Assembly: GCA_036676455.1 (NCBI GenBank) | Contig: JAKFCW010000101.1 | Location: 5,211-69,210, forward strand | Length of the DNA: 64,000 nucleotides | Direction: 5' to 3' | DNA from: Candidatus Sericytochromatia bacterium | GTDB taxonomy: Bacteria; Cyanobacteriota; Sericytochromatia; S15B-MN24; UBA4093 | In this document: in pieces, positions 30,869 to 64,000 of the stretch | Position numbering within the stretch: the stretch's first letter is position 1 | Layout: every line of letters begins with the position of its first letter | The notes under the pieces: model-generated | The model's database searches: none | Told to the model about the DNA's origin: nothing | What the model saw: only the letters and a program-made list of their open reading frames with translations | Position numbers and translations under genes: made by a program

Positions 30869-33800
30869 ATGATCGATATCAGGCTCCTGCCGGCTTTCCG
30901 GCGCTTCCTTGCGTTCGCGCTGATCATGACCCTCGCTCTGGCCTTGACGGCTTGTCCTCGTCCGCTCACGCCTCCCATGGGCCTGCCGGGCGACGGCTCG
31001 GTGATCCAGGCGGCCGATCACGTGGAAGGCCGCATCAGCTTCGGCTTCCGCCACACCCAGGCCGGCATCAAGGAAGACGTGGCTCCCGGCGCGACCGTCT
31101 CGCTGATCGAGCTGACCACGGGCAACACCGTGAGCACCACGCGCACGGACGCGGACGGCAAGTTCCTGCTCACCTACTCCAACGGCTTCAAGCCGAAGTC
31201 CGGAGATCTCTACTACTTCGAGGCGGTCAAGGGGCTTTCGGGTGGGACGAGCGCGCCCAACGCGGCCGGCTCCGACGCCGTGAGAGTCCGCACCATCGCG
31301 AGCTACTGGAGCGGCGGCTGGGTCACCCTGACCAGCGGCAACCCCGGGACGTCCATCCTGATCTCTCCGATGACCACCGCGCTCTCGGTGGTGGTGAGCC
31401 TGCGCCAGGCCACCTCCAAGAAGCTCGATCCCACGGCCCTCTTCGGGGCCATCAAGGCGGGGCGGCCCGCGGGCGGCTACCCGGACACCGTGCAGATGTC
31501 GAGCCCGGAGCTCGTCCAGATGGTTCAGCGGGCCTACGACCTGGTGGTCGGCTCCCTGGAGAAGGATCGCGACCCCCTGCGCTGGATCCAGCTGTCGAGC
31601 GCGGACCTGGACTTCAACACCGTCACGCTGCCGGAGCTTCCCTTCTCGATCTCGTACCTCGACCCGCCGAACGCGGTCGCCCTGGAGACCATCGATCTCG
31701 TGGGCAGCAACTTCGAGGGCGAGCCGGTGGTGGACTTCCAGGCCGACGGAGGCCAGCTGGCGCGCGCGACCGAACTCAGCGTGAGCTCGGACCTCACGCG
31801 GATCACGGTCCGGGTGCCCCCGACCGCCGTCACCGGCCATGTCCGCCTGAGCATCGGCGAGCGCACCCTCACCGGCCCCATCTTCCGGCTTGACACCCGG
31901 GACGGCCACTCCGTGGTGGACGCCCGGGGCAACCTCTACGCGGCGAACCGGGGTCTCGGCACCGTGGCCATCCTCGAGCCGGTGAGCGGCTCCGACCGCA
32001 CCAGCGTGCGCTCGCTGATCACCGATCTCGGAGAGCCCTCGGCGTTGACGTTCGGCCTCTCGGGCTTCGGCGCCCTGTTTGTCGCCAGCACCGGCGGAGT
32101 CGTCTGGAACGCCTCGCTCGACGTGCCACTGGACGCCGCCACCCCCATCTCCTTCCTCTCGAAGGCCTCTTATTCGACGGGCGGGGCCGCGGATCCGGGC
32201 GGCATGGCCTTCCGGAACAAGCCCGGCGATCCTGGCCACGGCGTCCTCTACGTGACGGACGCGGCCAACCACAAGCTTTACGCCGTGCGGGCGGGGGGCG
32301 GCGTCGCCCAGCTCGTGACGTTGACCGGGGTGGCGTTGTCCCAGCCCCGGGGGCTCTCGTTCGGGCCTGACGGCCGCCTCTACGTCGCCAACGCGGGCGC
32401 CAACAACGTCGTGGCCATCACCCTGACCTCGGATACGACCGGCACCTCCGAGGATTTCGTGAGCGGCTTCAGCATGCCCTGGGGCATCGCGTTCGACAAC
32501 CGGGGCAACTGCTACGTCAGCAACCACCGGGGCAACTCGGTCTACCGCGTGCCGGTGACCTCGGAGCCCGGCGTTACCCCGATCGCCTACGGAAACGTCG
32601 GCGCCTTCTCGAGCATTCCCAGCCCCGCGGGCCTGGATGCCGACGCATCGGGTTACCTCTACGTCGCCGATCGCTTGACCAACGGGGTCTACCGGATCAA
32701 CACCCTGGCGGAGAGCCAGCAGATCGCCTTCGGGATGAACGCGCCCACGTCGACCTGGGTGGATGCGGACGGCCTCTTCCTGCTCACGGATTCCGGCCGG
32801 CTGCTTCACTCGAACAAGCTCGACAGCACGGGCGTCCTCAAGGTCGTGGCCCAGGGGTTGCTCACGGCCAAGGGCCTGGTTCGGGACACCGACGGCAACT
32901 TCTACACCCATCAGGCGGCCCTCGACGCCATCACCCAGATTCGCCCGGACGGCTCCACCGTCCAGGTGGTGGTCGGCGTCAGCACGTCGGACGGCGCGGG
33001 CCTCTCCATCCGCGGAGACAAGCTCTACCTGCGTTCGAACACCAGCTTCGATCCGGGCGGCGACTCCTACGCGGTGCAAGGCGAGGTCCTGGAGTTCACC
33101 CTGGTGCGAGGCGGAGACGGCAAGGTCTCGCACGTCTCCGGTCCGACGGCACGCCTCCGGACCCCCGTCGACAAGCTCACGGGCCTGAGTGGCGGCGGCG
33201 GCACGCTCTACACCATGAACCCGCGAACCAAGACCTTCTTCGCGATGACGGTGGCCGGCACCACGAACCAGAGCGTCGGCCGCAGCTCGACCATGACGCG
33301 CCTGAAGTCGGATCCCTCCCTGGCGGATCCCAAGAACCTCCTGGTCGTGAACGGCAAGATCTGGGTGGCGGATTACGCCGGCGGAGGCAACGGCAGCATC
33401 CGGGTCTATGGGCTCGACGGGACCTTCGAGCAGGAGATCGCGGACATCGAGACCCCGACTCACCTGGCCTACGACGGGACCTACGTCTACGCCAACTCGT
33501 ACACGGGCGGCTACCTGCGGGCCTTCGAAACGACGGCGCCGTACGCCAAGGTCGCCGCGCGCGAGCGCACGGGCTTCAGTAACCCTCGCCCATTCGCCTT
33601 CGAGGGAACCACGCTCTACGTCAACGAGTGGGGCCCCAACCGGATCTCGAAGATCGACAACTACGCCGCGAGCACGGTGATCACTCCCCTGCTCACGCAG
33701 TCCGACCGCAATGATCTCGCGGTCATGGCGGGGACGATCTACGTCACCTCGGGGGCCAGCGTCTACCGGATCACCGATGACGGGAGCGGCTGGACCCAGG

Positions 33801-34378
33801 AGGGCGTGGCGTGGAAGGACTACGACCGGACCCTGAGCACCCTCAGCGTGATCGACGGGGCGCTCTATGCCGTCAGCGACAGCGCCCGGATCCATGACCT
33901 GCGGGAGTCCTCGTACCGGGCGATCGCCACCAGCCTCTACTACCAGTTCGGCCTGTACGGCTACTCGGGCATCCATGGGGATCCGTCGGGCTGGGGCCTC
34001 GTGAAGGGGACGGACCTCGTCTCGTACGGCCGGGGGGATTCGCACTCGACCTACGTCGTCGAGACGGCGCTCGACGGCTCCATGCATCGAACCTACCGGT
34101 TGATCGGCATCACGCTCGGAGGCATGGTGGATGACGGAGCGGGGACCGTTTATCTGACGCACGTCGGCCACGGCACGATCTACCGCCTGGCAGGCAACAG
34201 CTTCGCGCAGTTCGCCTCGGGGCCGTACGGCTCGCTGGATCGCATGTACGGCGGGATCTCGTATCACGGCGGCAAGATTTACCAGGCCATCTACACCAGG
34301 CACTGGATCGACCAGATCGACGCCACCAGCGGCGCCCGGACGACCCTGAAGCTGGGCCTGGTTACCCCGGAGTTGTAG
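30869..34378 (+). CDS. Giant lipoprotein, class A (A1): lipobox-CPRPL + CarboxypepD_reg-like + linker + IPT/TIG + about 800 aa of NHL-type beta-propeller repeats. About 1169 aa.
   Basis: ATG at 30869 lies 6 nt after GAGGAGG. The leader is MIDIRLLPAFRRFLAFALIMTLALALTAC-PRPL. Motifs are GATVSLIELTTGNTVSTTRTDADGKFLL, LYYFEAVKGL, RVRTIASY, MTTALSVVVSL, DRDPLRW, an IPT segment (ISYLDPPNAVALETIDLVGSNF...RITVRVPPTAVTGHVRL), then DGHSVV. NHL-like blades follow (LYVTDAANHKLYAV, LYVANAGANNVVAI, CYVSNHRGNSVYRV, LYVADRLTNGVYRIN). It ends LGLVTPEL. Confidence 0.85.
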   Translation: MIDIRLLPAFRRFLAFALIMTLALALTACPRPLTPPMGLPGDGSVIQAADHVEGRISFGFRHTQAGIKEDVAPGATVSLIELTTGNTVSTTRTDADGKFLLTYSNGFKPKSGDLYYFEAVKGLSGGTSAPNAAGSDAVRVRTIASYWSGGWVTLTSGNPGTSILISPMTTALSVVVSLRQATSKKLDPTALFGAIKAGRPAGGYPDTVQMSSPELVQMVQRAYDLVVGSLEKDRDPLRWIQLSSADLDFNTVTLPELPFSISYLDPPNAVALETIDLVGSNFEGEPVVDFQADGGQLARATELSVSSDLTRITVRVPPTAVTGHVRLSIGERTLTGPIFRLDTRDGHSVVDARGNLYAANRGLGTVAILEPVSGSDRTSVRSLITDLGEPSALTFGLSGFGALFVASTGGVVWNASLDVPLDAATPISFLSKASYSTGGAADPGGMAFRNKPGDPGHGVLYVTDAANHKLYAVRAGGGVAQLVTLTGVALSQPRGLSFGPDGRLYVANAGANNVVAITLTSDTTGTSEDFVSGFSMPWGIAFDNRGNCYVSNHRGNSVYRVPVTSEPGVTPIAYGNVGAFSSIPSPAGLDADASGYLYVADRLTNGVYRINTLAESQQIAFGMNAPTSTWVDADGLFLLTDSGRLLHSNKLDSTGVLKVVAQGLLTAKGLVRDTDGNFYTHQAALDAITQIRPDGSTVQVVVGVSTSDGAGLSIRGDKLYLRSNTSFDPGGDSYAVQGEVLEFTLVRGGDGKVSHVSGPTARLRTPVDKLTGLSGGGGTLYTMNPRTKTFFAMTVAGTTNQSVGRSSTMTRLKSDPSLADPKNLLVVNGKIWVADYAGGGNGSIRVYGLDGTFEQEIADIETPTHLAYDGTYVYANSYTGGYLRAFETTAPYAKVAARERTGFSNPRPFAFEGTTLYVNEWGPNRISKIDNYAASTVITPLLTQSDRNDLAVMAGTIYVTSGASVYRITDDGSGWTQEGVAWKDYDRTLSTLSVIDGALYAVSDSARIHDLRESSYRAIATSLYYQFGLYGYSGIHGDPSGWGLVKGTDLVSYGRGDSHSTYVVETALDGSMHRTYRLIGITLGGMVDDGAGTVYLTHVGHGTIYRLAGNSFAQFASGPYGSLDRMYGGISYHGGKIYQAIYTRHWIDQIDATSGARTTLKLGLVTPEL

Positions 34379-34388: not shown

Positions 34389-37300
34389 GTGGTGAGAACG
34401 CTTTTCGTGATGCTGCTCGCCCTGGTGCTGGCAAGCTGCAAGCTGCCTTCCCTCGTGCCGCCGCTTTCCTCGTCGGGAGTGGCGCCCGCGCGCCTGGCCA
34501 GCTCGACGCAGATCGCGGGCCGGATCGCCGCGTCGAGCGGAGTGCAGGCGAGCATCCTGGACATCGCCAAGGGCGCTTCGGTCGCCCTCATCGACGCGGC
34601 CACGGGCCTCACGCTCTCCACCACGGTCACCAATCCCGATGGCACCTTCTTCCTGCAGTTCGCAGAGGGCTTCGTCCCGGTGGACGGTCGGTCCTACATC
34701 CTCGAGGCGTTCAAGGGCATCAAGGGGGCGAATCCGGATTACAACCAGGCGGGCGCCGACACCATGCGCCTGCGGACGCTGCTCACCTACCGCGAGGCGG
34801 AGAAGGGCTGGGTGAGCCTGGCCAACGCCGTGCCGGGGCCGATCGACCTGACGATGTCGACCACGGCGGTTTCGGTGGCGATCGCCCACATGAGCCAGGC
34901 CGGCACTCCCGTGGATCCTACCCTCTTCATCGGCTGCTTGAACGGCGATGCCTACGACGAGGCTGCCCGCCCGCTCTCGCTGGTCGCCTTCACGGCCCTG
35001 CGCGCGGAGGTGGAGAAGGCCATCACCGAGGACCGCGACCCCCTTCACTACGTGGTCTACGACAGCAAGACCGGCTCGTTCCTGAGCTCGTTCGTGGCCT
35101 TCGCGGTCTCCGAGATCACTCCGAGCAGCGGCAACATCGGGACCCTGCTCGACATCCGGGGCGACGGCTTCACCTCCGGTCCGCTCGAGATGGTCACCAT
35201 CAACGGGACCCAGGCCGAGATCCAGCCCGGTACCCTCGCGGAGGACCGGGTGGTCGTCAAGGTCCTTCCTGGCACGCGCACGGGCCCCGTCTCGATCGTG
35301 ATCAACGGCGTCGTCCAGGCGGGCCCGACCTTCACCGTCACGATGACCGACGGCCACCGCTCGGTCCGCGGCGAGACCCTCTACGTGGCCAACCCCGCCT
35401 GGGGAACCGTGGCCGAGGTCAAGCCGAACGGCGAGATCCGGACCCTGAGATCCGGGCTTTCGACCCCGCGGCAGGCCGTCGTGGGCCCCGACGACCTGAT
35501 CTACGTCTCCAACGAGGGGGACAACACCGTCGTCCGCTTCGACGCGGCCGGGGGCGCCTTCGAGACCTTCTCGACGGCCGTCACCAAACCCTACGGGCTG
35601 GCCTTCGACGGCGCCGGCAAGCTGCATGTCTCGAGCCGGCAGGCCGCGGGCTCGGTGGTCAAGCTCGATGCCGCGGGCAATGCGGCCGCCACCGTCACGG
35701 GCCTCGCCCTGCCCGAGGCGATCGCCTTCAACGCGGGGGGCGACCTCTTCGTCGCCGAGGACGCCGGCTCCATCCGCCGCGTTCCCGCCGGAAGCCTCAC
35801 CCCGGAGGCCTACTCCTTCGTCGCGACCCCCATGGGCCTGGCGGTCGACTCGGCGGGTGACCTCTACGTCGCCAGCAACGACAACTCCGTCGTCTACCGG
35901 ATCGGGGCCAACCGGGCGCTCACGGTCTTCGCCATGCTCAACCGTCCCGGCGGTCTGACCTTCGATCCGAACGGCAACCTCTACGTGTCGGATACCGAGC
36001 GCAACCTCATCAACCGCGTCTCGCCCTCGGGCGACGTCCGGGTGCTCGCCTACGGCATCAGCATGCCGCGCGGCCTCGCGGTCGATCCGACGACCCACAA
36101 GGTCTACGTCTCCCTCAACCGCTCCAATGCCATCCTGGAAATCGACGGGGATGTCCTGCGGCCCTTCGTCACCGGCATCGCCAACCCGTTGACCCTCACC
36201 TACCGCGGGAGCGGCCTGTACATCGGCCAGCCCGAGATCGACACCATCTCCTTCGTCACCACGCCGGGAGGCCGCCTCTCCACCGTCGCGAGCGGCATCT
36301 CCGAGGCCAGTGGCGCGGATGCCTCCGCGGACGGCACGGTCTACGCCGGTCGCTGGGGACGCGAGGACGCATGGCAGCCCAACCGCAACCCCATCTACGA
36401 GGGCGGCTTCCAGAGCCTCGATCCGCTGGGCGTCCTCCAGCCCATCCGCTATCCCTACGTCCGAAAGACCCGCTTCCGGGCCATCGCGCCGGACGACACC
36501 GTCTACGAATCGAGCCACGACGAGCGGACGATCGCGAAGATCACCCCGCATGCCAACGGCTCGCGCACGGTCGAGCAGCTTTGGCGCTCGGACACCGAGC
36601 GCCCTCGCCACATCGTCCTGGACGCCTCCGGCAACCTCTACGTCTCCTTCCTCGATCAGGACAAGGTCGTGCGCTTCCGCCCGCCAGCCTACGCTCCGGA
36701 AGCGATCACGGGCTTCAGCCAGCCCTTCGGCCTGGCCTTGCACCCGGGGGCCGACGCCGTCAGCCTCGCGGACGACAAGCTCTACGTCTACAACCGCGGC
36801 AATGGGTTCCTCTCCTGGATCAACAACCCGTCGGTCGCCGCGACCAAGACCGCCGACTCGGCCGGCCCCTCGACCGGCATCGCCACCGCCGGGGACACCT
36901 ACGGGCTCGCGCTCGCCCTGAAGCCCGGAGACGACGGCGTCTACCTCGCGGCCCAGAGGAAGGTCGTGCGCTACGACATCGGCGACGGGCTCTTCGCGTC
37001 CTACCTCACCAAGGACCTACCGATCGCGATCACCGAGATCAAGGCCTGGCCCGACGGCACGCTCTTCGCTCGCCCGGAGAACGAGGACTTCGTGACCATC
37101 TCGCCCTCCCTGGTCGTGACCCAGTCGAGGCTGCGCAGCTATGGCGGAGCCAAGAACTGGAAGGACGACGTGGGGCGCACCCTCTTCCAGGGTGATACCT
37201 ATGGCCACCAGATCTGGAGAGGCTCCGAGACCTTCCTCGGCGCGCTCGGCCGGACCTTCGAGGTCGCGGTCGACGGCTCGAGCTACCTCTATCTCGCCGG

Positions 37301-37661
37301 GGCCGGGACCCGCGGGGACACGGGCACCGACTACGGCGGCCTGTTCCGCTACGAGCTCTCCGGGGCCTCTCCCAAGGAGCTCTACGTCCCGATCGGCAAG
37401 GGGCGGGTCTACTCTCTGGTCGTGGCTTCCGACCGCACGGTCTACGCCGGCTCCGGGGATCAGAAGATCTACCAGGTCGACCTGAACGGAGCCGTCACGC
37501 CCAAGTGGTCGCTAGGCACCCTCCCCTACGGCCTCGATCGCGATGGCGACACCCTCTGGGTGGTGGGAGAGAACAACCGCATCTTCTCGTTCGCGCGGAC
37601 CCTGTCCGAGGCGCTGACCCCGCCGTCCCAGACCTACGGCATCATGGAGCCCGTCTTCTGA
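34389..37661 (+). CDS. Giant lipoprotein, class B (B1): [15 protein letters not shown] + the same N-module + NHL-type beta-propeller repeats. 1090 aa.
   Basis: GTG at 34389 follows AGGAGGAGG, 10 nt after the A1 stop. The leader is [24 protein letters not shown]. Motifs are [60 protein letters not shown], an IPT segment ([22 protein letters not shown]...[17 protein letters not shown]), then DGHRS. Blades include [42 protein letters not shown] and [14 protein letters not shown]. It ends YGIMEPVF. Confidence 0.85.
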
Positions 37662-38032
37662 TGCGCATGCTCGTCACCCGCCTCGCCCTCGTCTCCCTCT
37701 GCCTGCTCCTCGGCTGCGCCGAGGATGACGGCTTGCTCGCGGGCCGCCCCTCCGCCCGGGCCTCGAGCCTCCCGGCTGACGGCTCGCCGACCCCCACCCC
37801 CACCCCGACCCCCACTTCGGACGCCACGGCGACGCCCACTCCGGCGCCGACACCGACTCCCACCCCGTCGCCTAGCCCCTCGCCCAGCCCGTCTGCCAGT
37901 CCGTCCCCCCCGCCGAGTCCCGCGGTGAATCCCACCCCGCCCGCGACTCCCGACCCGGAGCCCAGCGAGTTCCAGCCGGGCGAGGACGACGGGGGGATCG
38001 TCGGAGACGGCGACGTCGGCGGCGGGGCCTGA
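37661..38032 (+). CDS. Small Pro/Thr-rich lipoprotein (S1), 123 aa
   Basis: The ATG overlaps the B1 stop by 1 nt (TGATG). The leader is [38 protein letters not shown] / SPSPSPSP low-complexity region follows, then an acidic tail. Confidence 0.75.
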
Positions 38033-38192: not shown

Positions 38193-38339
38193 ATGCGAGC
38201 CATCGCGTCATCGGGTCTCGCCGGCCGCGTCCTGAGGGGGGTGCTGGCGGCTTGCCTGCTGGCATTCGTGACGGCGTGTCCCCGCCCCCTGACCCTCGAC
38301 ACGACGCCCACCCCCGGTGAGGAGCTGCTGCCGTTCTAG
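38193..38339 (+). pseudogene. Orphan 48-codon ORF encoding only a class-A-type signal peptide and lipobox (possible gene remnant or leader peptide)
   Basis: ATG at 38193 follows GGGAGGA. It translates as MRAISSGLAGRVLRGVLAACLLAFVTAC-PRPLTLDTTPTPGEELLPF-stop. It is below the ORF-track size cutoff and was read directly from the sequence. Repeat family 2 copy c follows immediately. Confidence 0.5.
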
Positions 38340-38540: not shown

Positions 38541-41500
38541 ATGCGAACTTTCGCCTCAGCGATCACTTCACGGCGAACCTGGCGGATCGTTCTAACGGTC
38601 TGCCTGCTGGCACTGCTGACGGCGTGTCCTCGCCCCCTCGTTCCCCCCGCCTCGACTCCCGGCCTCGGTGCTGATCCCAGCCTCTCGGCCACCGAGCAGG
38701 TCCTGGGCCAGGTGGACTTCGGCGGCCAAACAGTGCAGGCCGATATCTCGGACGACATCGCCCCGGGCGCCACCGTCGCTCTGATCGACGTGCAGACCGG
38801 GCAGACCCTGAGCACCACCCGCACGGACGAGAACGGCCGCTTCGTGCTCGTGTACTCCAACGGCTTCAAGCCGGTATCGGGAGGGCTCTACTACTTCGAG
38901 GCCCTCAAGGGCCTGAAGGGTTCCAGCGGGCTTCCCAACGCCGTAGGCGCGGACGTGGTTCGGGTCCGGACCATCGCCAGCTATCGCAACGGCGGCTGGG
39001 TCACCCTCACCAGCCGGACTGTCACCACCTCGATCCTCATCAACCCCATGACCACGGCCCTGTCGGTCATCGTCAGCCTGCGGCAGGGCTCCGTCGCTCC
39101 TCTCGACGTCAGCACCCTCTTCGGCACGATCAAAGCGGGCCGTCCGGAGGGGAGCTATCCCGACACGCTGGACCTGCCGGATCCCTCGCTGGTACCGCTG
39201 GTCCAGAGCGCCTACGACCTGGTCATCGACGCCCTTGCCAAGGAACGGGACCCCGTCCGCTGGATCACGCTCGATAGCGAGAACCCCAACGTCGTCCGCT
39301 TGCCGGACATCCCCTTCTCGATCAAGTTCCCGGATCCCGGCGTCCAGGAGATCGGCAAGGAACTCGATCTGGTCGGGGTCAACTTCGCCCCGGAAGCCGC
39401 ACAGAACCTGGTCTCTTTCCGCACCGACGGCGGCTGGATCCCCGCCACGGTCGTCTCGGTCCTGCCTGACCTGACCCGCCTCAAGGTCATCGTCCCCGAC
39501 GGCGCGGTCAACGGTCCCATTCGCCTGCAGATCGGCGACAAGATCCTGGTCTCGGATTTCAACTTCCAGCTCGCCGTCGTCGACGGCCACAGCGTCGTGC
39601 GCCCCTTCGGAGGCATTTCCTACCTCTTCGTCGCCAATGCCAGCCTCGGCACCATCGCCTACGTCTCCCCTTCGGGCGAGGCCACTCCGCTGATCAAGAA
39701 CCTCTCGAGCCCGCAGGCGCTGACCTTTGGCCCGGATGGATTCCTCTACGTCGCATGTGGCGGCACCACGAAGCGCGTCGTCCGCTTCGACGTCACCCTC
39801 GACGGCAACGGCAACCTCGTGCCGGGCATCCCAACCGATTACTCCGGCTTGCTTTCCAATCCCTCGGGCATGGCCTTTGATCTCTCCGACCCCAACCCCG
39901 ATCCCAGTCAGCGGCTCTATCCGCTTTACGTCGCGGACCGTGGCCTCAACCAGTTGCACCGGGTGGAGTGGACGGCGAACCGCACCGCGGTCCAGCCCAC
40001 CGCGCTCTTCCCCGTGGCAGGGCTCAATGAGCCGCGCGGCCTCTCCTTCGGTGCCGATGGCCGCCTCTACGTGGCCAACGCCGGGGCCAACAACGTCCTC
40101 GCCGTGTCCAAGCTGAGCGGCGAGAGCGAACCCTACCTCTCGGGTCTCGGCAAACCCTGGTCCGTGGCCTTCGACAGCAAGGGCAACTTCTACGTCAGCA
40201 GCAACACCGGCAACTCCATCTTCCGGCGCGACGCCGTCTCGGGAGTCCTCTCGGCCTTCGCGAGCGTCCCCAGCCCCGGTGGCCTGGACGCCGACGCCTC
40301 GGGTTACATCTACTGCGGAGACAACGTCAGCAACCAGATCTACCTGGTCAACTCGCTGGGCGAGACGCGCATGGTCGCCACGGGCATCAGTTCTCCGATG
40401 GGCATCCACGTCGACGCGGACGGCCTCTTCGTGGTGACCGGCAGCGGCCAGTTGCTCAAGGTCACCCACGACACCGGCTCTCTCTCCGTGCTCGCGGATG
40501 GCCTCACGGGCGCGGGCGACCTGGGCCGCGACTCCGCGGGCAACTTCTACGTCTTCCAGAAGAGCCTCGGTCGCATCTCCCGGATCACCCCCGCGGGGAT
40601 CATCAGCGTCTTCCTCAACGTCACGAACACCTCCGACATCTACGTCAAGGGCAACAAGCTCTACCTCAAGAAGACCAACACCCTACGCCCTGACGGCAAC
40701 TGGTCCGGCATGGGAGGAGTCGAGGTCCGGGATCTCTCCGACCGGGAAGTCGTGCAGGACTTGAAGGTCAGCTACATGCGCGATGCTATCGGCATGGCCT
40801 TCGATACCACTCCGGCCGGCGCCTACCGCGATTGGCTCTACGTGGCCAACCTCGACGATCGCTCGGTCGTGAGGCTCAAGCCGGAAGGCGACGGAGACCT
40901 CAAGCGGCACAAGGTCCATCGCTTCCTCGACCGCGTCAACGCCCCCGAGCTGGATCGGCCATGGGACGTCTGGGTGGATCCGGCCAGCGGCAACGTCTGG
41001 GTCTCGGATCAGGGCACGTCCACCGCCGATGATGGCCTTTACGTCTACAACTCAGCCGGTACCCGGATCGCGGACTATTCGGGCATCGTCGATCGCCCGC
41101 TGAAGTTCGGTTACGACGGCTCGCGCCTCTACCTCGCGAACTACGGAGGCCACGAGGTCATCCGGATCGACCCGACCAGCGGGGCCGAACTGGGGGCGAT
41201 CGCCGTCCCCTACCCCCGCTCGATCGCCTTCGACACGGCCAGCAACCGCATGTTCATCGGGACCTGGGACGGCTCGAGCGGCAGCCGCCCGATCAAGAAG
41301 GTCGACGCTTACGCCACCGCGCCGGTGATGGCGGACTACTACGACCTGCTGGCCTACGACCTGGTCTTCGAGAACGGCAACCTCTACACCGCCGCCGGCT
41401 CCTCCTACAAGATCTCCGCCGACCTGACCCGCCACGATCGCTTCATGTCCTCGCGATCCACCCTCTACGACTTCGCGCGCCGCGCCGACGGCAAGATCTA

Positions 41501-45760: not shown

Positions 45761-45782
45761 GGTCACGATGAAAGAGGAAACC

Positions 45783-47670: not shown

Positions 47671-47738
47671 GTGCTCACAGTCGCTCGCAACCTGAGGGGG
47701 CGCTCGCTCTAGTCGCGCGTGGGGAAAGAAGGCCAGTC

Positions 47739-55436: not shown

Positions 55437-58400
55437 TTGCTCGCAAGTGCACATGCTCGACGCTCGAGCCTCGCCATCGTCTACGTGCTGCTGGCCGCGC
55501 TGGTTGCGCTGCTGACGGCCTGTCCCCGTCCGCTGCTCGCTCCGACCGGAGCCGGGGGCGCGCAGGGCATGGCCCTGGATCCGGAGGCGGCCGTTTCCGG
55601 GCACGTGGATTTCGGCGCCCGAAAGACGCAAGCCACCATCAAGGACGACGTCGCCCCCGGGGCCACCGTCTCGCTCATCGAGGTCACCTCCGGCCAAACC
55701 CTCGCGACCACCTTCTCTCAGCCGGATGGTCGCTTCGTGCTACAGTTCTCGAATGGCTTCAAGCCCGTCTCCGGGGGGCTCTACTACTTCGAGGCCGTCA
55801 AGGGCCTCTCGGGGCCGACCGGCCAGCCCAACGCCGTGGGGGCGGATGCCGTCCGGGTCCGGACGATCGCGAGCTATCGGAGGGGCGGTTGGGTGACCCT
55901 CAGCACGAAAGGCGTCACCACCAGCATCTCGCTCTCCCCGATGACCACCGCCCTCTCGGTCGTCGTCAGTCTGCGCACCGGCACCGCCAAGAGCATCGAT
56001 CCCACCACGCTTTTCGGAGCGGTCCGGGCGGGCCAGGGTGAGGGCAGTTATCCCGATGCCCTCACCCTTCCGGACCCGACCCTCGTCCCACCCTCCATGG
56101 TCTACGAGGCGTACGATCTGGTGGTCGACGCGCTGGCCAAGGAGCGGGATCCGATCCGCTGGATCACCCTGGATAGCGCTGATTTGACGTCCTTGAGCTT
56201 GCCGACGATTCCCTTCTCGATCAAGTACCTCGTGCCGTCGATGCAGGAGGTCGGCCAGAAGCTGGACCTCGTGGGCGTCAACTTCGCCCAGAACCCGGCC
56301 GATAACAAGGTCTCCTTCACGACGGACGGCGGCTGGGTCCCGGTCACCGAGATCGGCCCCGTCTCGGCGGACCTGACGCGCCTGACCGTCACGGTGCCGA
56401 ACGGGGCCATCAGCGGCCCGGTTCGCCTCGAAATCGGCGGCAAGATGCTCTCCACGGACCCGGACAAGTCCTTCAGCCTCGCCGTCATCGACGGTCATAG
56501 CGTCGTACGGGTCCTGGACCGAAAAGCCTATCTCTTCGTGGCGAATCCGGCGAAGGGCACGATTTCCAAGGTCACCCCCGAGGGCGAGGTGGTTCCTTTC
56601 CTCTCGGGCTTGACGAGCCCTCAGGCCCTGACCTTCGGGCCGGATGGCTGCCTTTACGTCGCCTGCGGAGGGGCCAAGAACCAGATCGTGCGCATCACGC
56701 TCACGGCGGCCCTGACGGCTGCGAGCAGCGACGTCCGGGATTACTCGACCCCCCTCGTCAATCCGACGGGTCTGGCCTTCGACATGACCCAGGTCTCGAC
56801 GCAGGCCACGGTCGCCAGCGCTCCGTTGTACGCAGTGACGGGCGACGGCCAGCTTTATCGCTTGCCGTGGACCGGAGCGCTCGAGAACGTGGTGCCGGTC
56901 CTGGTTCCGCTCCAGGGGGCCAGCTTGAGCGGCCCCCGGGGGATCTCCTTCGGTTACAAGGACGACGACTGGCGCTTGTGGATTCCCAACGCGATCGCCA
57001 ACAACGTCGTGATCGTCGATCCGGCCACCGGTCAAGCCACCGTCGAGCTTTCCGGCATCGGGAAACCCTCCGGCGTCGCCTTCGACAGCAAAGGCAACCT
57101 CTACATCTCCAGCAACACCGGTAACTCCATCTTCAGAAGGGAAGCCGGCCAGAGCGAGCTGAAGCCCTTCTCGAGCGTACCCACTCCCGCGGGCCTGGAT
57201 GCCGACGCCTCGGGCTACATCTACTGCGCCGACAACGTCAGCAACCGCATCTACATGGTCAACTCCCAGGGTGAGAGCCGCATGCTCGCCACCGGCATCA
57301 GCTACCCGCTGGGGGTTCACGCCGACGCCGACGGCATCTTCGTCGTCACCGAGATCGGCCAGATCCTGAGAATCTCGCACGGCAGCGGCGTGGTCTCGCT
57401 CTTTGCCGACGGCCTCTCGAATCCCATGAGCCTGGGACGCGACGCGGACGGCAACTTCTACGTGCATCAGCCCGCCCTGAAGCAGATCACCCGCCTGGCC
57501 ACGGTCACGGATGCCTCCGGCCGACTCACCGGCATGATCGACTCCTACCTCCCCGTCTCCAACGTCCGCGACATCCACGTCGCGGGCCGCAAGCTCTATC
57601 TCCAGAAGACCCTCATCAAGAATCCCCAGGGCGAGGACGAGGGCCGAGGCGGCGTCGAGATCCGGGATCTCTCCGACTGGGGAACCACGGAGTCCCTCTA
57701 CACGGGCTTCATCCGGGACGGCGTCGGCATGAGCTTCGACAACTCCACGGGGCCCTTCCAGGGCGCCCTCTACCTCGCGAACTTCACCGACAACTCGATC
57801 GTGCGCATGGACGCAGACGCGGCCAACCCCCCGCGAGGCAAGATCCGGCCCTTTCTCAACGGCACCCAGAACCCCAAGCTGGTGCGCCCGAACGACGTCT
57901 GGGTTGACCCTGCCAACGGCAACGTCTGGGTTTCCATTCAAGGCATCAACACGGATACGGATGGCTTGATCGTCCTCGACTCGGCCGGCGTCGAGCTCAA
58001 GGACTACTCGACGCTGGTCAATCGTCCGCGCAAGCTCGGCTTCGACGAGACCCACCTCTACCTCACCAACGAGGGCGGAAACGAGGTCATCCGGATCGAC
58101 CGCACCACGGGCGCCAAGCTCGCCTCGTACGCGGTGCCCAAGCCGCTTTCGCTTGCCTTCGATACGGCCACCGACACCATGTACGTGGGCTCCAACGATG
58201 GCCAGATCTACCGGATCACCGGGTACCGCACCGCGACGCCCGCTGCGGCCGCTCCCTTCCATGCGCTCCATGCCTACGATCTGTATTTCCACACCGATAA
58301 CTACCTTTACGCGGCGAACTCCTCGACCTGGAAGATCGAGAAGGACGGGTCCACCCGCTTCGTCTACCGCCGGCATTACGGGCAGATCTACGACTTCGCG

Positions 58401-58937
58401 AAGCGCGCCTCGGACGGCAAGATCTTCCACCTCACGCGAGATGGCCGCTTCGATGCCTGGACCAACAACTATGTCACCTCCTCGGGGACCATGTTCACGG
58501 GAGGCAGCTCGGCCGTTCCGGACGGCAAGGGCAACTGGGTCTCGGTCTTCGAGACGATCTGCGGAGGCAAGAGCCTCATCGTCGGCGACCTGGCCGGCAC
58601 GTTCCAGCAGTATGCGGGCAGCCGGATCGGCATGACGCAGTGCTGGGTCACGGTCGGGTCGATGACCAGCGATGGCGACGGGAAGGTCTTCGTGGTGAGC
58701 AATCCGCAAGGTCGCCTGCATCGTTACGACGTGGCGACGGGAGTGCTCGAGCACCTGCCCAAAACCGGCGGAGCCTACAACGACGGGGACCAGGGGCTCG
58801 GCGTCGCGGCCTACAACGACAAGGTCTACGTGACGATGCGCAACCGGCACGTGGTCGACGTCTTCAACGCCGATGCGGCGGCGGACGGCGCCTTCATCGA
58901 GACGTTGAACGTCGGCCTGGTCAACCCCGAGCTTTGA
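55437..58937 (+). CDS. Giant lipoprotein, class A (A2', closest to A2). About 1166 aa.
   Basis: TTG at 55437 lies 5 nt after AAAGGAG. The leader is LLASAHARRSSLAIVYVLLAALVALLTAC-PRPLLAP. The track ORF start at 55140 would span the terminator hairpin. Motifs match A2 (LYYFEAVKGL, ERDPIRWITLDS, LAVIDGHSVVR, TSPQALTFGPDGCLYVACGG, IYCADNVSNRIYMVN). It ends VGLVNPEL. Confidence 0.8.
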   Translation: MLASAHARRSSLAIVYVLLAALVALLTACPRPLLAPTGAGGAQGMALDPEAAVSGHVDFGARKTQATIKDDVAPGATVSLIEVTSGQTLATTFSQPDGRFVLQFSNGFKPVSGGLYYFEAVKGLSGPTGQPNAVGADAVRVRTIASYRRGGWVTLSTKGVTTSISLSPMTTALSVVVSLRTGTAKSIDPTTLFGAVRAGQGEGSYPDALTLPDPTLVPPSMVYEAYDLVVDALAKERDPIRWITLDSADLTSLSLPTIPFSIKYLVPSMQEVGQKLDLVGVNFAQNPADNKVSFTTDGGWVPVTEIGPVSADLTRLTVTVPNGAISGPVRLEIGGKMLSTDPDKSFSLAVIDGHSVVRVLDRKAYLFVANPAKGTISKVTPEGEVVPFLSGLTSPQALTFGPDGCLYVACGGAKNQIVRITLTAALTAASSDVRDYSTPLVNPTGLAFDMTQVSTQATVASAPLYAVTGDGQLYRLPWTGALENVVPVLVPLQGASLSGPRGISFGYKDDDWRLWIPNAIANNVVIVDPATGQATVELSGIGKPSGVAFDSKGNLYISSNTGNSIFRREAGQSELKPFSSVPTPAGLDADASGYIYCADNVSNRIYMVNSQGESRMLATGISYPLGVHADADGIFVVTEIGQILRISHGSGVVSLFADGLSNPMSLGRDADGNFYVHQPALKQITRLATVTDASGRLTGMIDSYLPVSNVRDIHVAGRKLYLQKTLIKNPQGEDEGRGGVEIRDLSDWGTTESLYTGFIRDGVGMSFDNSTGPFQGALYLANFTDNSIVRMDADAANPPRGKIRPFLNGTQNPKLVRPNDVWVDPANGNVWVSIQGINTDTDGLIVLDSAGVELKDYSTLVNRPRKLGFDETHLYLTNEGGNEVIRIDRTTGAKLASYAVPKPLSLAFDTATDTMYVGSNDGQIYRITGYRTATPAAAAPFHALHAYDLYFHTDNYLYAANSSTWKIEKDGSTRFVYRRHYGQIYDFAKRASDGKIFHLTRDGRFDAWTNNYVTSSGTMFTGGSSAVPDGKGNWVSVFETICGGKSLIVGDLAGTFQQYAGSRIGMTQCWVTVGSMTSDGDGKVFVVSNPQGRLHRYDVATGVLEHLPKTGGAYNDGDQGLGVAAYNDKVYVTMRNRHVVDVFNADAAADGAFIETLNVGLVNPEL

Positions 58938-58941
58938 GGAG

Positions 58942-61900
58942 ATGACCATGCCCTTCATGCGCGTTTTGAACTTGCTCTTGGTCGTGCTGCTCGCGGGGTG
59001 CCGCCTGCCGTCGCTACTGCCGCATGCCGCTACCCCGCTTGACGGAACCTCCGCCGCCATGCCGGCGCATGTGCTGCAAGGGCGAATCGTGTCGCCGCCT
59101 CAGGTGCAGGCTTCCCTGACCGACATCGCCTCGTTCGCGAGCATCGCCCTGATCGACTCCGAGACGGGCTACACGGCCGCGACGACCGTCAGCGGCGCGA
59201 ACGGCACCTTTACCCTGAGGTTCGAGGCCGGCTTTTCGCCGGTCGATGGCCGTGCCTACTACCTCGATGCCATCAAGGGCATCAAGGAGACCGGGCCCGC
59301 CACCGACCCCAACCCCCTCTTCAATCAGGCGGGCGCTGATGCCGTGCGGCTGCGCACGGTCCTCTTTCATCAAAGCATGCCCGAAGGCTGGGTGAGCCTC
59401 AAGAACGCCGCGCCAGGCGCGATCTACATCAGCCGGGGCACCACGGCGATCGCCATGGCGGTCTTCCTCAAGCAGCAGTCCCAGGCCATCGCCTGGAGTT
59501 CCCTCATCGGGGCCCTGCACGTGGAGACCGACGCCTATACCGAGGTCCCGGCTTCACTGACCTCCACCGAGTTCCAGGATGCCTACGCCATCGTGGACGA
59601 GGCGATCACCCAGCATCGCGACCCGCTTCAGTTCCTCGCCTTCGACTCGGCCGTCGGCTTCGTCAACCTTTACAACGGCCACTCGGTCGATTCCCTGGAG
59701 CCCGATCACGGCGCGATCAACCAGCAGATCGTGATCAAGGGGGACGGCTTCCTGACCCCCGGCGACGTGACGGTCACCTTCAACACGACCGAGACGGTCC
59801 CCCCGACGGGAGCCAACCGCACCAAGGACAGGCTCGTGGTGACGGTTCCCCCGGGAGCCCGAACCGGGCCGGTGCTCGTCAAGATCGGCACGGTGACCCA
59901 GGCCGGCCCGGCTTTCACGGTGGATTCCTACGACGGGCATCGCGCCAAGCTGGGCGACACCCTTTACGTCGCGAACTTCGACCGCGCCAAGATCGTCAAG
60001 GTCTCGCCGGACGGCGTGGTCGAGGATTTCGCCGACGTGCCGGCCGGTCCCACGCAGCTTGCGATCTACACGGACGACTCCGATCCCCTTCAGCCGATCG
60101 AGCGCTTGTTCGTTGCCTGTGAGACCGCCGACCAGATCGTGACCCTCGACCTGCGCGAGCCCGCTCCGATCGCCCAACCCTTCGTGAACCTCACCAAGCC
60201 TGCAGGCCTGGCCTTCCTCGGAAACGTCCTCTACGTCTCCAGCAAGTCCCTCAAGACCGTCTCGCGCTTCAACCTCGACAAGTCCTCGGCAGGGGACGCG
60301 CTCACGGGCTTCGAGGCTCCAGCAGCCCTGGCGTTCGACTTCGAGAGCCAGCTCTTCGTCGCGGACGGCAACAAGGTCCTCCGGGTCAACCTGACGACGG
60401 GAACGTCGCTGGTCTGGATCTACCTCTCCAGCCCCCGGGGCCTGAGCGTCGATTCCGGCGGCACGCTCTACGTGGCCAACTACGACGACGGCGTGATTTA
60501 CCGGATCCTCGTCATCCCGCCCACCAACCGCCGGGCGGCCTACGTCTTCGCCCGCGTCCCCAATCCCACCGGCATCATGCTGGATGCCGCCGGGTACATG
60601 TTCGCCGCCTCGGAGACGCAGCATCAGATCTCGCGGATCTCTCCGCTGGGCGACATGAAGCCCTACGCCTACGGCATCGCGAACCCCCGCGGCCTGGCCG
60701 TGGATGGCGCCGGGAACCTCTACGTCTCCCTCAGCCAGTCGAACGCCGTCTTGAAGGTGGAGCAGAACGGATCCTATCGAACCCGGCCCTTCGTCACGGG
60801 GATCCCCAACCCGCATTCCATCACGTGGCGCAACGACAAGCTCTACCTCGCCCACCGGGATGCCGGCGTGGTCTCCTCGGCGACCGCCGCGGGGAGCATG
60901 AAGACGGAGGCCGTGGGGTTCACCATGCCCGGCGGCGCGGACGTGGCGGCCGACGGCACGATCTTCGCGGGGCGCTACGGCGCGAGCTGGCACCTGGAGG
61001 TCTGGCCGCCCGATCCCACCCATGTCCACTACAACCGGGGTGGCCTGGAGTCCTACGCCAACGGAGTGATTTCCCTCGACCGCGGCTTCGTCAGGACCAG
61101 CCTCAAGGGCCTGGTGGGCCTGGACGACGGCACACGCTACGTCCTGACCTCCCAGAACACCTTGCTGGAACTCAAGGCCACCAACGGGCCGTCGTCATCC
61201 TACCGGTATCGCCAGCTGGATGCCTACGCCCAGACCCCGCTCCGGATCGAGCGGGATGGAGCGGGCAACCATCTCTACGTGCTCCTGGAGGGCTCGAAGG
61301 ATGTCCTCCGTTACGAGAAACTAGGCGACTCCTGGGTCAAGTCCGTGCTCGACCTCGATCCCGCGCTCGACAAGACGGGTTTCACCAATCCGACGCGGAT
61401 GACCTTCGATGCGGCCGGTGACCGCCTCTATGTGCTCGATGGCGGAGTGCTGAAGCGCGTCGAGGGCGCCACGACCGCGACTCCGGCGCTTTCCACGAAG
61501 GCGCCCGGAGAGCTTTGGTCGGTCTCCTTGACCGGAGCGAACAGTATTTCCTACAAGAACTCCCGGATTTACGTGACCTATGGCAACACCTGGATTCGCT
61601 CTCTCGATTCGACCCTGGCTTCCCCGACCGTCTCGGACTACGCCCAGGGACCGGTCAACCTGACCGGGGTCATCGCCCATCCCGTGAGCGACTATCTTTT
61701 CGCTTACCAGGGTGAAGACGGCTACAAGGTCCCGCCCAGCGGGGTCTTCGAGTACCTCACCGGATACGGCGGCACGGCCTTCGCCTACACGCCGGACGGC
61801 ACCTTCATGCGGGACTACGTCAGTTACATGCCGCTTTATTTCGGCAAGACCACGCTGCCGGGCTTGGTCCAGACCCACGAAGTGGCGGTCGACGGTGACC

Positions 61901-62271
61901 GGGTCTACGTCGGAAGCTCGATGAACGATGAGTACACCGGGGTCTATCGCTTCGATCGCGATACCGGCGAGCAATGGCTCATCCGGGGTCTGGGATCCTC
62001 GGGGGCCAGCGCCATCGCCGTCGGGCCTGACCGGACGCTCTACGTGGGTGGGGGCAACGGCAAAATTTACCAGGTGGACGGCAACGGCGCGGCCTCGGCA
62101 GCCTGGGTGACGACTCCCGCCATTCCAAGCGATCGCCTCTACGGCCTTGACATCACGGCCAACGGCACCAAGCTCTGGGCGATCGGCAGTTCGCGCACCA
62201 TCTACGGCATCACGGTGGCCGGCAAGACCGTCGAGCTGGTCAAGCCGGGCCTCTCGTCGCCACGCTTCTAG
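58942..62271 (+). CDS. Giant lipoprotein, class B (B2', closest to B2). 1109 aa.
   Basis: The leader is MTMPFMRVLNLLLVVLLAGC-RLPSLLP. Motifs match B2 (AYYLDAIKGI, NQAGADAVRLRTVL, QHRDPLQF, VDSYDGHRAKLGDTLYVANFDRAKIVKV, YGIANPRGLAVDGAGNLYVSLSQSNAVLKV). It ends KPGLSSPRF. Confidence 0.85.
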   Translation: MTMPFMRVLNLLLVVLLAGCRLPSLLPHAATPLDGTSAAMPAHVLQGRIVSPPQVQASLTDIASFASIALIDSETGYTAATTVSGANGTFTLRFEAGFSPVDGRAYYLDAIKGIKETGPATDPNPLFNQAGADAVRLRTVLFHQSMPEGWVSLKNAAPGAIYISRGTTAIAMAVFLKQQSQAIAWSSLIGALHVETDAYTEVPASLTSTEFQDAYAIVDEAITQHRDPLQFLAFDSAVGFVNLYNGHSVDSLEPDHGAINQQIVIKGDGFLTPGDVTVTFNTTETVPPTGANRTKDRLVVTVPPGARTGPVLVKIGTVTQAGPAFTVDSYDGHRAKLGDTLYVANFDRAKIVKVSPDGVVEDFADVPAGPTQLAIYTDDSDPLQPIERLFVACETADQIVTLDLREPAPIAQPFVNLTKPAGLAFLGNVLYVSSKSLKTVSRFNLDKSSAGDALTGFEAPAALAFDFESQLFVADGNKVLRVNLTTGTSLVWIYLSSPRGLSVDSGGTLYVANYDDGVIYRILVIPPTNRRAAYVFARVPNPTGIMLDAAGYMFAASETQHQISRISPLGDMKPYAYGIANPRGLAVDGAGNLYVSLSQSNAVLKVEQNGSYRTRPFVTGIPNPHSITWRNDKLYLAHRDAGVVSSATAAGSMKTEAVGFTMPGGADVAADGTIFAGRYGASWHLEVWPPDPTHVHYNRGGLESYANGVISLDRGFVRTSLKGLVGLDDGTRYVLTSQNTLLELKATNGPSSSYRYRQLDAYAQTPLRIERDGAGNHLYVLLEGSKDVLRYEKLGDSWVKSVLDLDPALDKTGFTNPTRMTFDAAGDRLYVLDGGVLKRVEGATTATPALSTKAPGELWSVSLTGANSISYKNSRIYVTYGNTWIRSLDSTLASPTVSDYAQGPVNLTGVIAHPVSDYLFAYQGEDGYKVPPSGVFEYLTGYGGTAFAYTPDGTFMRDYVSYMPLYFGKTTLPGLVQTHEVAVDGDRVYVGSSMNDEYTGVYRFDRDTGEQWLIRGLGSSGASAIAVGPDRTLYVGGGNGKIYQVDGNGAASAAWVTTPAIPSDRLYGLDITANGTKLWAIGSSRTIYGITVAGKTVELVKPGLSSPRF

Positions 62272-62284
62272 CACGGGGGATCCC

Positions 62285-62632
62285 ATGAGACGAGACCTGT
62301 TGCCGACCCTTTTCATTGCCCTTGCGCTCGCCCTGGCGGCCGGCTGCGCCGGCGAGGACGACCTGCTCGGCGGAGCGGGAGCACGGAAGCCGGCTTCCGG
62401 CACGGCCGTGGAGGGTGCGGCGAGCGATACCGGGGCGGGATCGCAAACTCAGACCCCCACCCCCACCCCCACGCCGACTCCCTCGCCCACCGCGACCCCG
62501 ACGCCCGTGCCGACGCCGACGGAATATGCGACCATGCAGCCGCCGCCGGTCAACGATGAACCGGAGGGCCCCGAAGCGAGCCCGCCGCCGATCGATCAGA
62601 CCGAGCCGATCGAGGATGAGAATACCGTCTAG
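62285..62632 (+). CDS. Small Pro/Thr-rich lipoprotein (S4), 115 aa
   Basis: The leader is MRRDLLPTLFIALALALAAGC-AGEDDLLGG, followed by [22 protein letters not shown] and an acidic tail. Confidence 0.75.
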   Translation: MRRDLLPTLFIALALALAAGCAGEDDLLGGAGARKPASGTAVEGAASDTGAGSQTQTPTPTPTPTPSPTATPTPVPTPTEYATMQPPPVNDEPEGPEASPPPIDQTEPIEDENTV

Positions 62633-62760: not shown

Positions 62761-64000
62761 ATGAGGAAGCGGGGAAATCTCTGGCTGACGTTGCTGATGG
62801 CCGTGCTGCTGGCAGGATGCCCTCGTCCCCTCGTTCATCCCCCCACCTCCGTGCCTCAGTCTCCCCCGGCGTTCGGCGTCCAGGTCATGGTGCCTCCGCT
62901 CCAGGGAAAGGTCGCCACCACCCCGCGCCAGATCCAGGCCGGCATGGAGGACATCGCCGTGGGGGCCACCGTCGCCCTCATCGACACCGGGACCAACAAC
63001 ACCGTCTCGAGCACGGTCACGGATAACGAGGGGCGATTCGTCCTCACGTTCAGCTCGGGATTCGTGCCGCAATCCGGCAAGACCTACTATCTGGAAGCTC
63101 TCAAGGGCCTGCCGGTCAACGGGCAGCCAAACCGCGCCGGCGCCTCGGCCGCTCGCGTGCGGACCCTCATCGCCTGGGAGCCGGCCGGCTGGATGAGCCT
63201 GACCAACGCCGATCCGGCCGGCGGGATCATCATCAGCCGCGCCACGACGGCGATCGGCATCATCTCCTCGCTTCGCACCGCCGCCAACGACGCCCCGACC
63301 CTCGCGCAGCTGATTGGCAACGTCGTCGACGGCACCACCTTCACCCCCTCCGGGGGGATCCAGGCCTCGGAGTTCGACACGGTCCTGGGCTTCGTGAACG
63401 ACGCGCTGTCCCAGAACATTGATCCCCTCTACTACGTCGCTTACGATGCCCTGAGCCGGCAATACCTGCCGCAGCCTCCCGGCGTGGATATCAAGCCTCC
63501 CAGCCCGCTGAAGGGGGGGATCGGGACCGCCGTTTTCATCGAGGGTACCGACATGGGCGCGAATCCGGAGGTGCGCTTCAACGGCGTCCTGGGCACGGAC
63601 ATGGTCGTGAGCCACTCAGGGGTCACGGTCAAGGTTCCCGCCGGCGCCACCAGCGGTCCCCTGACGATCCTGATCGACTCGCTGGCCTTCAACATCGGCA
63701 ACTTCGCCGTCACCAACTGGGATGGTCACAATCCCTTCGACTCCCAGGACAACCTCTATGTCGCGAGCGCCCTTTCCGACCAGATTCTCCGCATCACGCC
63801 CGCGGCGGACCCCAGCGTCTTCGCCGAAGACGCCCGGCTCGCCTACCCACGCGGCATCGTGGTCGACGCGCAGGACAACGTCCTCGTCTCGAGCTGGAAC
63901 GGCAACCAGATCCTCAAGGTCAGCCCGCTCGGAGTCATCACCGACTTCTCCACCCAGGGCGGCTTGATCTACAACCCCTGGCACCTCACCATGGACGGAG
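62761..64000 (+). CDS. Further family member (class-A-like lipobox CPRPL, N-module + start of NHL propeller). Open at the right edge.
   Basis: This ORF is absent from the track because it has no stop in the window. Reading from ATG 62761 gives MRKRGNLWLTLLMAVLLAGC-PRPLVHP...GATVALIDTGTNNTVSSTVTDNEGRFVL...TYYLEALKGL...NRAGASAARVRTLIAW...QNIDPLYY...IPT-like (GIGTAVFIEGTDMG...VTVKVPAGATSGPLTI)...NWDGHNPF...LYVASALSDQILRI...VLVSSWNGNQILKV. Confidence 0.8.
   Translation, partial: MRKRGNLWLTLLMAVLLAGCPRPLVHPPTSVPQSPPAFGVQVMVPPLQGKVATTPRQIQAGMEDIAVGATVALIDTGTNNTVSSTVTDNEGRFVLTFSSGFVPQSGKTYYLEALKGLPVNGQPNRAGASAARVRTLIAWEPAGWMSLTNADPAGGIIISRATTAIGIISSLRTAANDAPTLAQLIGNVVDGTTFTPSGGIQASEFDTVLGFVNDALSQNIDPLYYVAYDALSRQYLPQPPGVDIKPPSPLKGGIGTAVFIEGTDMGANPEVRFNGVLGTDMVVSHSGVTVKVPAGATSGPLTILIDSLAFNIGNFAVTNWDGHNPFDSQDNLYVASALSDQILRITPAADPSVFAEDARLAYPRGIVVDAQDNVLVSSWNGNQILKVSPLGVITDFSTQGGLIYNPWHLTMDG

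Follow-up and report, generated by a model that had tools for sequence, protein, structure and literature searches.

What do the few residues that directly follow the lipobox cysteine do in three neighboring classes of bacterial lipoprotein? The question is raised by a 64,000-nt stretch of DNA (the window) from Candidatus Sericytochromatia bacterium (assembly GCA_036676455.1, contig JAKFCW010000101.1, positions 5,211 to 69,210, forward strand). Four tandem cassettes in the window each encode a class A lipoprotein (~1,170 aa), a class B lipoprotein (~1,100 aa) and a small S protein (~110 aa), and two of the four also encode a mini-lipoprotein, S' (~65 aa). A first-pass annotation of the sequence had claimed that each class carries its own fixed motif after the cysteine and had read these motifs as possible sorting or export signals. 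The A-B-S set proved to be a module conserved in Candidatus Sericytochromatia and coupled in the genome to a type II secretion system (T2SS)-like type IV filament machine. Targeting or sorting toward the cell surface is the tentatively favored explanation of the motifs, at a likelihood judged to fall somewhat short of even. The lipoprotein genes concerned are listed below with window positions.

30869..34378, + strand: A1, class A lipoprotein, 1169 aa; Cys codon 30953, LTAC-PRPL
38541..42035, + strand: A2, class A lipoprotein; Cys codon 38625, CPRPL
47739..51284, + strand: A3, class A lipoprotein (identical to P0015); Cys codon 47823, CPRPL
55437..58937, + strand: A4, class A lipoprotein; Cys codon 55521, CPRPL
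62761..64000, + strand: A5, A-like lipoprotein with the shared N-terminal module (N-module), incomplete at the window end; Cys codon 62818, CPRPL
28092..30206, + strand: A0, 704-aa lipoprotein, N-module plus TIG domain; Cys codon 28176, CPRPM
24202..26802, - strand: X866, 866-aa N-module lipoprotein; Cys codon 26727, CTRPIVPT
38193..38339, + strand: orphan leader open reading frame (ORF); Cys codon 38277, CPRPL, 20 residues after Cys
34410..37661, + strand: B1, class B lipoprotein; Cys codon 34437, CKLPSLVP
42045..45422, + strand: B2, class B lipoprotein; Cys codon 42096, CRLPSLLP
51297..54710, + strand: B3, class B lipoprotein; Cys codon 51345, CRLPSLLP
58957..62271, + strand: B4, class B lipoprotein; Cys codon 58999, CRLPSLLP
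37667..38032, + strand: S1, small low-complexity Pro/Thr-rich lipoprotein; Cys codon 37715, CAEDDGL
45431..45760, + strand: S2; Cys codon 45485, CAEEDGL
45768..45971, + strand: S2', mini-lipoprotein, 67 aa (identical to P0304); Cys codon 45846, CAEEDGL
54714..55040, + strand: S3; Cys codon 54774, CAADEDGL
55078..55269, + strand: S3', mini-lipoprotein; Cys codon 55141, CADDGAL
62285..62632, + strand: S4; Cys codon 62345, CAGEDDL
26871..27965, - strand: 364-aa NHL beta-propeller lipoprotein with an S-type tether; Cys codon 27896, CAEDDSLLIGGR (CAEDDSL)

The motif strings were located by a six-frame regular-expression search of the window, and every string claimed for the three classes was found at the ORFs named for it. 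All 18 motif-bearing N-termini were confirmed (seven with CPRP[LM], four with C[RK]LPSL[LV]P and seven acidic). A rule-based scan for the signal peptidase II lipobox ([LVI][ASTVI][GAS]C), combined with manual reading, found a basic n-region, a hydrophobic h-region and a lipobox in each of them. The six-frame translation contains another six CPRP strings, all out of frame, which are regarded as noise given the 67% G+C content of the window. The general formulas of the heads are C-x-[RK]-P-φ-x-P for the A type, C-[RK]-φ-P-S-φ-φ-P for the B type and C-A-[ED]-[ED]-[DG]-x-L-x-G-x-G-[KR] for the S type; position +2 is Pro in class A and Arg or Lys in class B, and each of the seven S-type N-termini in the window has Ala there.

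The positions that had been given for the motifs are ORF starts, although the range of 30869-62800 assigned to the phenomenon misses A0, the NHL lipoprotein and X866, the last being an additional member that the first-pass annotation had not listed. All seven CPRP[LM] instances are present. Nevertheless, the CPRPM of A0 is lost in its orthologs, and the orphan ORF was rejected as an independent instance: its leader is identical to that of A2 at 55 of 70 nt (~79%), which makes it a remnant of that leader and not a separate piece of evidence.

The strict conservation that had been asserted for these otherwise diverged N-termini was borne out. Identity between the window paralogs is 36-42% for A and 34-38% for B, and the motifs are invariant. 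Searches recovered 37 A-family and 34 B-family matches, almost all of them metagenomic; down to ~36% identity, the class A homologs retain L-T-A-C-P-[RK]-P-[LM] and those of class B retain C-[RK]-[LM]-P-S-φ-φ-P. Information content was computed over the non-redundant homologs (28 for A, 34 for B). The motif positions carry 3.2-4.3 bits in A and 2.5-4.3 bits in B, compared with about 1-1.5 bits and about 1 bit, respectively, in the linker that follows. In the full-length alignments the motif window ranks 34th of 1125 in A and 32nd of 1042 in B (top 3%), whereas the next 15 columns, with means of 1.67 and 1.42 bits against a median window of about 2.5, are among the least conserved. In class A the lipobox residues at -2 and -1 (T-A) are conserved as well. 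Synonymous codon variation occurs inside the motifs, so selection acts on the peptide rather than on the DNA; a DNA-level cause such as gene conversion or a conserved nucleotide element was rejected on this ground. Conservation of the motifs is therefore well above that expected from shared ancestry alone.

A homologous N-module of ~300 aa is common to A, B, A0, A5 and X866. Its alignment begins at the cysteine, and Cys1 and Pro4 are invariant across all 11 N-module paralogs of the window. AlphaFold2 models of A1 and B3 (mean predicted local distance difference test score, pLDDT, 84 and 84.8) show tandem propellers preceded by an N-terminal module, which consists of a beta-sandwich, a helical part and a TIG-like domain. 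The pLDDT falls below 50 at residues 24-48 of A1, which include Cys29, the motif and the linker, and at residues 11-41 of B3. The cysteine, motif and linker are thus predicted to form a disordered, lipid-proximal tether. A highly conserved short motif within a variable disordered segment is the typical signature of a recognition motif.

S and S' are of low complexity throughout the mature chain and gave no Pfam or NCBIfam match. They start with an acidic head, which is followed by a Gly-rich stretch, by one or two basic residues and by Pro/Thr repeats, to which S adds an acidic tail. The 364-aa NHL lipoprotein carries a tether of this type ahead of its propeller. S' is a real conserved family of mini-lipoproteins of 61-69 aa. 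When the 41-aa acidic N-termini were used as protein queries, six mini-lipoproteins of the S' type were all that came back; such a search is too insensitive and is silent on the portability of the motif.

Specificity was assessed on lipoproteins predicted across the window and 36 related loci and classed by BLAST; the loci named below carry the labels L002, L003, L010, L019, L022 and L081-L085. The 37 unrelated lipoproteins have Ala, Ser or Gly at +2 and are nearly uncharged from +2 to +9. At least two acidic residues at +2 to +7 were found in 16 of the 18 S-type proteins, in none of the 37 unrelated lipoproteins and in none of 58 N-module lipoproteins (0/95 combined; Fisher p = 1.4e-17, for sequences that are not independent). 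CPRPL and C[RK]LPS were likewise absent from the 37 unrelated lipoproteins of the related genomes. Since unrelated lipoproteins lack them, the heads are not a lineage-wide default, the outcome that would have told most strongly against the first-pass annotation.

Of the 58 N-module lipoproteins, 55% have Pro at +4 and 45% have it at +8, compared with 14-16% of the others, and 22-28% have Lys or Arg at +2 or +3. Other subfamilies of this superfamily carry heads on a C-x-x-P-φ theme (CQPALAPTG, CLKP[IM], CPKPP, CQIPFVAP and CVRLPPL), and the orthologs of X866 keep C-x-R-P-φ-x-P as CLRPMNPT, CPRPLIPP and CTRPLIPS. A profile search with the N-module against 1.84 billion representatives gave mostly multi-TIG repeat proteins among its top 150 matches, because the N-module ends in a TIG domain, and yielded ~17 informative N-module lipoproteins. 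The protein family is restricted to metagenome-assembled genomes of Candidatus Sericytochromatia and Tanganyikabacteria. The acidic head is borne by S, by S', by propeller lipoproteins and by a 160-aa protein with a C-terminal part that is not of low complexity, and it is retained in the most divergent loci. On these sequence comparisons it appears to be the most portable of the heads.

Directly upstream of the lipoprotein genes lies a gene cluster for a secretin-based machine. Its genes, together with related ones elsewhere in the window, are as follows.

10563..22994, both strands: T2SS-like type IV filament cluster (Pfam, NCBIfam)
10563-11201, 14972-15556 and 15563-16102, - strand: three pseudopilin paralogs (N_methyl)
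11848-12609, - strand: ABC-2 permease
12615-13175, - strand: small lipoprotein just downstream of the secretin gene, no family match
13159-15054, - strand: secretin (Pfam Secretin, Secretin_N)
16405-17946, + strand: GspF (Pfam T2SSF)
18393-20051, + strand: GspL/PilM-like protein (Pfam PilM_2)
20048-21211, + strand: GspC-like protein (Pfam T2SSC, weak)
21201-22994, + strand: GspE/PilB ATPase (Pfam T2SSE) with a cyclic-di-GMP-binding MshEN domain (NF053729, 55.5 bits, cut-off 38)
46062..47690, - strand: three minor-pseudopilin-like genes between cassettes 2 and 3, one with a clear prepilin N-methylation motif
8466-10448, + strand: 660-aa membrane protein with a long coiled-coil tail, conserved in the cluster

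Secretin, GspE, GspF, GspL/M-like, GspC-like and pseudopilin genes occur here together, which is the gene content that defines a T2SS. The NCBIfam equivalog scores, however, are all under the curated cut-offs, and those for GspD and PilQ are close to each other, as are those for GspE and PilB; 'T2SS-like type IV filament system' is therefore the safe label. Linkage of the lipoproteins to such a system, on which the first-pass annotation had not drawn, recurs in five independent loci (L003, L019, L084, L085 and, in part, L022). In L003 the order GspD-F-L-C-E is followed by A-B-S-A-B, and in L084 and L085 GspE is followed by A0, the NHL lipoprotein, the 866-aa protein and the A cassettes. L019 has N-module lipoproteins and an S-like gene inside the T2SS-like cluster. 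A metagenome scan with GspE gave just two close loci, both informative.

Known systems offer partial likenesses. Post-Cys residues sort lipoproteins by lineage-specific rules, such as Asp at +2 in E. coli and PulA, residues +3/+4 in Pseudomonas and Lys at +2 in Myxococcus (PMC3222651). The pullulanase rule had been cited as a precedent for the present motifs and does not apply, as none of them has Asp at +2. In classes A and B, a basic residue at +2 or +3 recalls the Myxococcus Lys. Unlike Lol-avoidance signals, the motifs are long (5-8 residues) and tied to protein families. Synechocystis, a model species of the same phylum, is without many Lol components (PMC5033237).

A closer match is found in T2SS-dependent surface lipoproteins, a set that includes PulA. 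Those of Acinetobacter baumannii (InvL and others) bear two classes of post-Cys motif, GGG or ND(N/D) at P2'-P4', that are necessary for T2SS-dependent surface display; export relies on the secretin GspD and the AsmA-like GspN (Roberts, Gura and Sandkvist 2025, PMC12802150). In Burkholderia and Shewanella the motif is a Gly/Asp hybrid (PMC12802150). As in that system, the motifs described here stand directly after the cysteine, fall into more than one class, are absent from the other lipoproteins of the organism and have a secretin-based T2SS nearby. The S-type head C-A-E-E-D-G-L-x-G-x-G is also acidic and Gly-rich, like the published motif, which is rich in acidic and amide residues and Gly. 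Its A-[ED]-[ED] and Gly-rich stretch resemble the Burkholderia and Shewanella hybrid without being identical to it, a likeness drawn from sequence alone. Nevertheless, the S-type heads have Glu or Asp after Ala at +2 rather than GGG or ND(N/D) at P2'-P4', the A and B heads do not fit, the phylum differs (Cyanobacteriota/Sericytochromatia instead of Proteobacteria) and no GspN was found in the window.

The second precedent cited for the motifs, the lipoprotein export signal (LES) of Bacteroidota, stands in part. The LES reads C-X-K-(D/E)2-X, SDDDD or SDDFE (Lauber et al. 2016, PMC5080379), and its definition includes being enough by itself to bring a periplasmic lipoprotein to the surface. The acidic cluster of the S-type proteins is similar to it, in that only a subset of lipoproteins has it and that it places two or three acidic residues between about +3 and +6. 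However, Ala, Gly, Pro or Thr stands ahead of the cluster where the LES has Lys, Gln or Ser, and the lineage is not Bacteroidota. The LES studies cited here also report no part for a T2SS, whereas a T2SS-like machine is linked here. For the Pro/Arg heads of A and B, no precedent was found in the literature.

Under the favored explanation, A, B and S would be exported by Sec, lipidated and cleaved at the lipobox cysteine, as their leaders suggest. The residues after the acylated cysteine would then set the fate of the anchor, either by avoiding a default route or by passing the protein to the neighboring secretin-based machine as the putative recognizing partner, and the proteins would finally be lipid-anchored on the cell surface. 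The S-type head would be the counterpart of the Asp/Asn/Gly-rich T2SS lipoprotein sorting motif and of the Bacteroidota LES. The A- and B-type heads would be subfamily versions of a superfamily-wide C-x-x-P-φ N-terminus, and their role, whether in sorting or in assembly, is less certain. Sorting is best supported for the acidic class, for which it appears plausible.

The circumstantial support for sorting is strong: a conserved island within a predicted disordered tether, specificity, T2SS linkage and a recent precedent. This much of the original proposal stands. Several findings weigh against it. The A and B motifs were seen only within one homologous superfamily, so a portable signal is inseparable from a family signature, and their conservation could come from another family-specific constraint. 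The orthologs of A0 (54-62% identity) read CPGALVPP, CPAAIAPP and CPAPN in place of CPRPM. T2SS-linked N-module lipoproteins elsewhere are headed CFWAPNTP, CKPPAALAP, CPNPFGTP and CQFFKPAPL, and CPRPL and CRLPSL are therefore unnecessary for the linkage. L081 has a single A-B-S cassette without a T2SS gene within 10 kb; this fits a spread of genes over several loci, yet it means that linkage is not obligatory. No GspN or AsmA-like family was detected by Pfam and NCBIfam among the well-supported ORFs of the window. If A, B and S go to one destination, the need for three separate signals is not obvious, and one copy per class in each cassette suits mutual assembly as well as sorting.

This last point leads to a serious alternative, possible though on the unlikely side, in which the heads would bind one another and zip into a membrane-proximal collar that holds a co-translated A-B-S complex. 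It fits the one-of-each-class cassettes at least as well as sorting does. S-bearing cassettes have one gene per class in the window, L003, L081 and L083, and the genes are tightly packed or overlapping, suggesting stoichiometric co-expression. The charges of the heads are complementary (A +1, from Arg at +3; B +1, from Arg or Lys at +2; S about -3), and class-specific motifs, which one shared destination would not demand, would be accounted for. The heads also co-diverge (CPRSL, CRMPGL and CTDPGALEV in L002; CPRLV, CIARPG and CPSSENSAF in L010), but phylogeny alone predicts the same. A 1:1:1 scheme is harder to reconcile with the cassette of L082, which has A and B without S, and with the acidic head on S' and propeller lipoproteins, which are surplus to it. 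Sorting and assembly might also be combined: the T2SS-like machine would place a lipid-anchored A-B-S complex on the surface, and the three complementary heads would form a combinatorial code in which the acidic head provides export or Lol-independent routing and the Pro/Arg heads dock A and B to it. This fuller scheme is decidedly unlikely.

It is also conceivable, though rather doubtful, that the heads are an inherited family signature with no recognition role, perhaps a Pro-rich rigid stalk that sets distance from or orientation to the membrane and is kept by descent and biophysical constraints. The module that starts at the cysteine with its invariant Cys1 and Pro4, the excess of Pro at +4 and +8, the subfamily-dependent heads and the conservation of T-A at -2/-1 in class A, even though these residues are removed by cleavage, are all in keeping with this. 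Nevertheless, a spacer would not rank in the top 3% while the adjoining linker varies in sequence and length; the motif is predicted to be disordered and unpacked on the fold, and proteins of different architecture, as well as the most divergent loci, retain the acidic head. The conservation across the cleavage site in class A (L-T-A | C-P-R-P-L) would equally suit residues that tune recognition by Lgt, LspA or Lnt and so affect, for example, how efficiently or in what form the protein is acylated, not where it goes; a Pro or Arg in position +2 is indeed unusual beside the Ala, Ser and Gly of other lipoproteins in the lineage. This is highly improbable, however, as these general enzymes handle all lipoproteins, including the 37 unrelated ones without such heads. 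Three differing solutions for one enzyme are hard to explain, and A0 and A5 pair an A-type head with another lipobox (A-G-C).

Lipoprotein surface routes are unresolved for most phyla, sorting rules being known in a handful of cultured lineages, and insight into the handling of acylated substrates by the T2SS is at an early stage (GspN, 2025). Post-Cys lipoprotein motifs tied to a T2SS were known already; here they are found in another lineage, on an undescribed protein module from an unexplored and uncultured sister group of the photosynthetic cyanobacteria. Should the motifs prove to be targeting signals, T2SS post-Cys codes would reach beyond Proteobacteria, localization predictors would gain sequence rules for the lineage, and the heads could serve as portable surface-display tags. 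If they are assembly motifs, they represent a new way to build lipoprotein complexes at a membrane surface. A combinatorial code would amount to a new way of exporting lipoproteins to the surface, with the first eight residues specifying both the signal and the assembly.

The bodies of A and B carry NHL beta-propellers in Pfam and NCBIfam scans. A fold search of the Protein Data Bank (PDB) with the A1 model gave generic tandem-propeller matches only (LRP6, megalin, DDB1). Propellers of the LRP6/megalin type and the NHL propellers of ScyD/ScyE resemble these bodies but are uninformative on the N-terminal motifs, and no function is transferable from them. B1 lies barely at the NCBIfam cut-off for the scytonemin-associated ScyD/ScyE family (82.9 vs 80 bits), a match that probably reflects the shared NHL propeller only. 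The minor pilin genes nearby prompted consideration of A and B as PilY1-like pilus tip adhesins; this identity was set aside, as they are lipoproteins with NHL-type propellers. The C-termini are also conserved, as ...GLVxPEL in class A (34350-34378 and equivalents) and ...[YF]G[LIM]M[EG]P[VS]F in class B (37630-37661 and equivalents). Both fit G-φ-φ-x-P-x-[LF] and are folded in the AlphaFold2 models, in which they may close a propeller rather than serve as a signal.

Within the T2SS-like cluster, the 660-aa membrane protein and the ABC-2 permease are kept beside pseudopilin genes in L019 and L022. The sequence of the 660-aa protein does not look AsmA-like. The small lipoprotein next to the secretin gene retains a C-[TS]-[AN]-S-Y-W head in L003, L019 and L085 and is a possible pilotin-like partner; no pilotin family was found among the well-supported ORFs of the window. 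The ~1.2 kb between GspE and the 866-aa lipoprotein (23000-24200) are without a clean ORF, and a frame with high G+C at third codon positions is broken by stops; the stretch may be a decayed gene. An Rfam scan of the window gave no match. One further gene precedes the cassettes:

30203..30712, - strand: 169-aa secreted protein, no family match, kept upstream of the first cassette in related loci

In L083, L084 and L085, the first A cassette has a homolog of this protein (~60% identity) immediately upstream. In L082 (5862-9417), a metagenome contig, the A-B pair comes after four lipoproteins headed CSLASL, CMSLPQ, CALHPS and CTSLPP. These heads are unrelated to those of the module, and the four proteins have a conserved N-terminal region in common. 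Finally, an ortholog of S2 in L083 has a tail nearly identical to that of S2 itself, DSYTSPDPDSVNG, and this similarity hints at a further short motif with a function.

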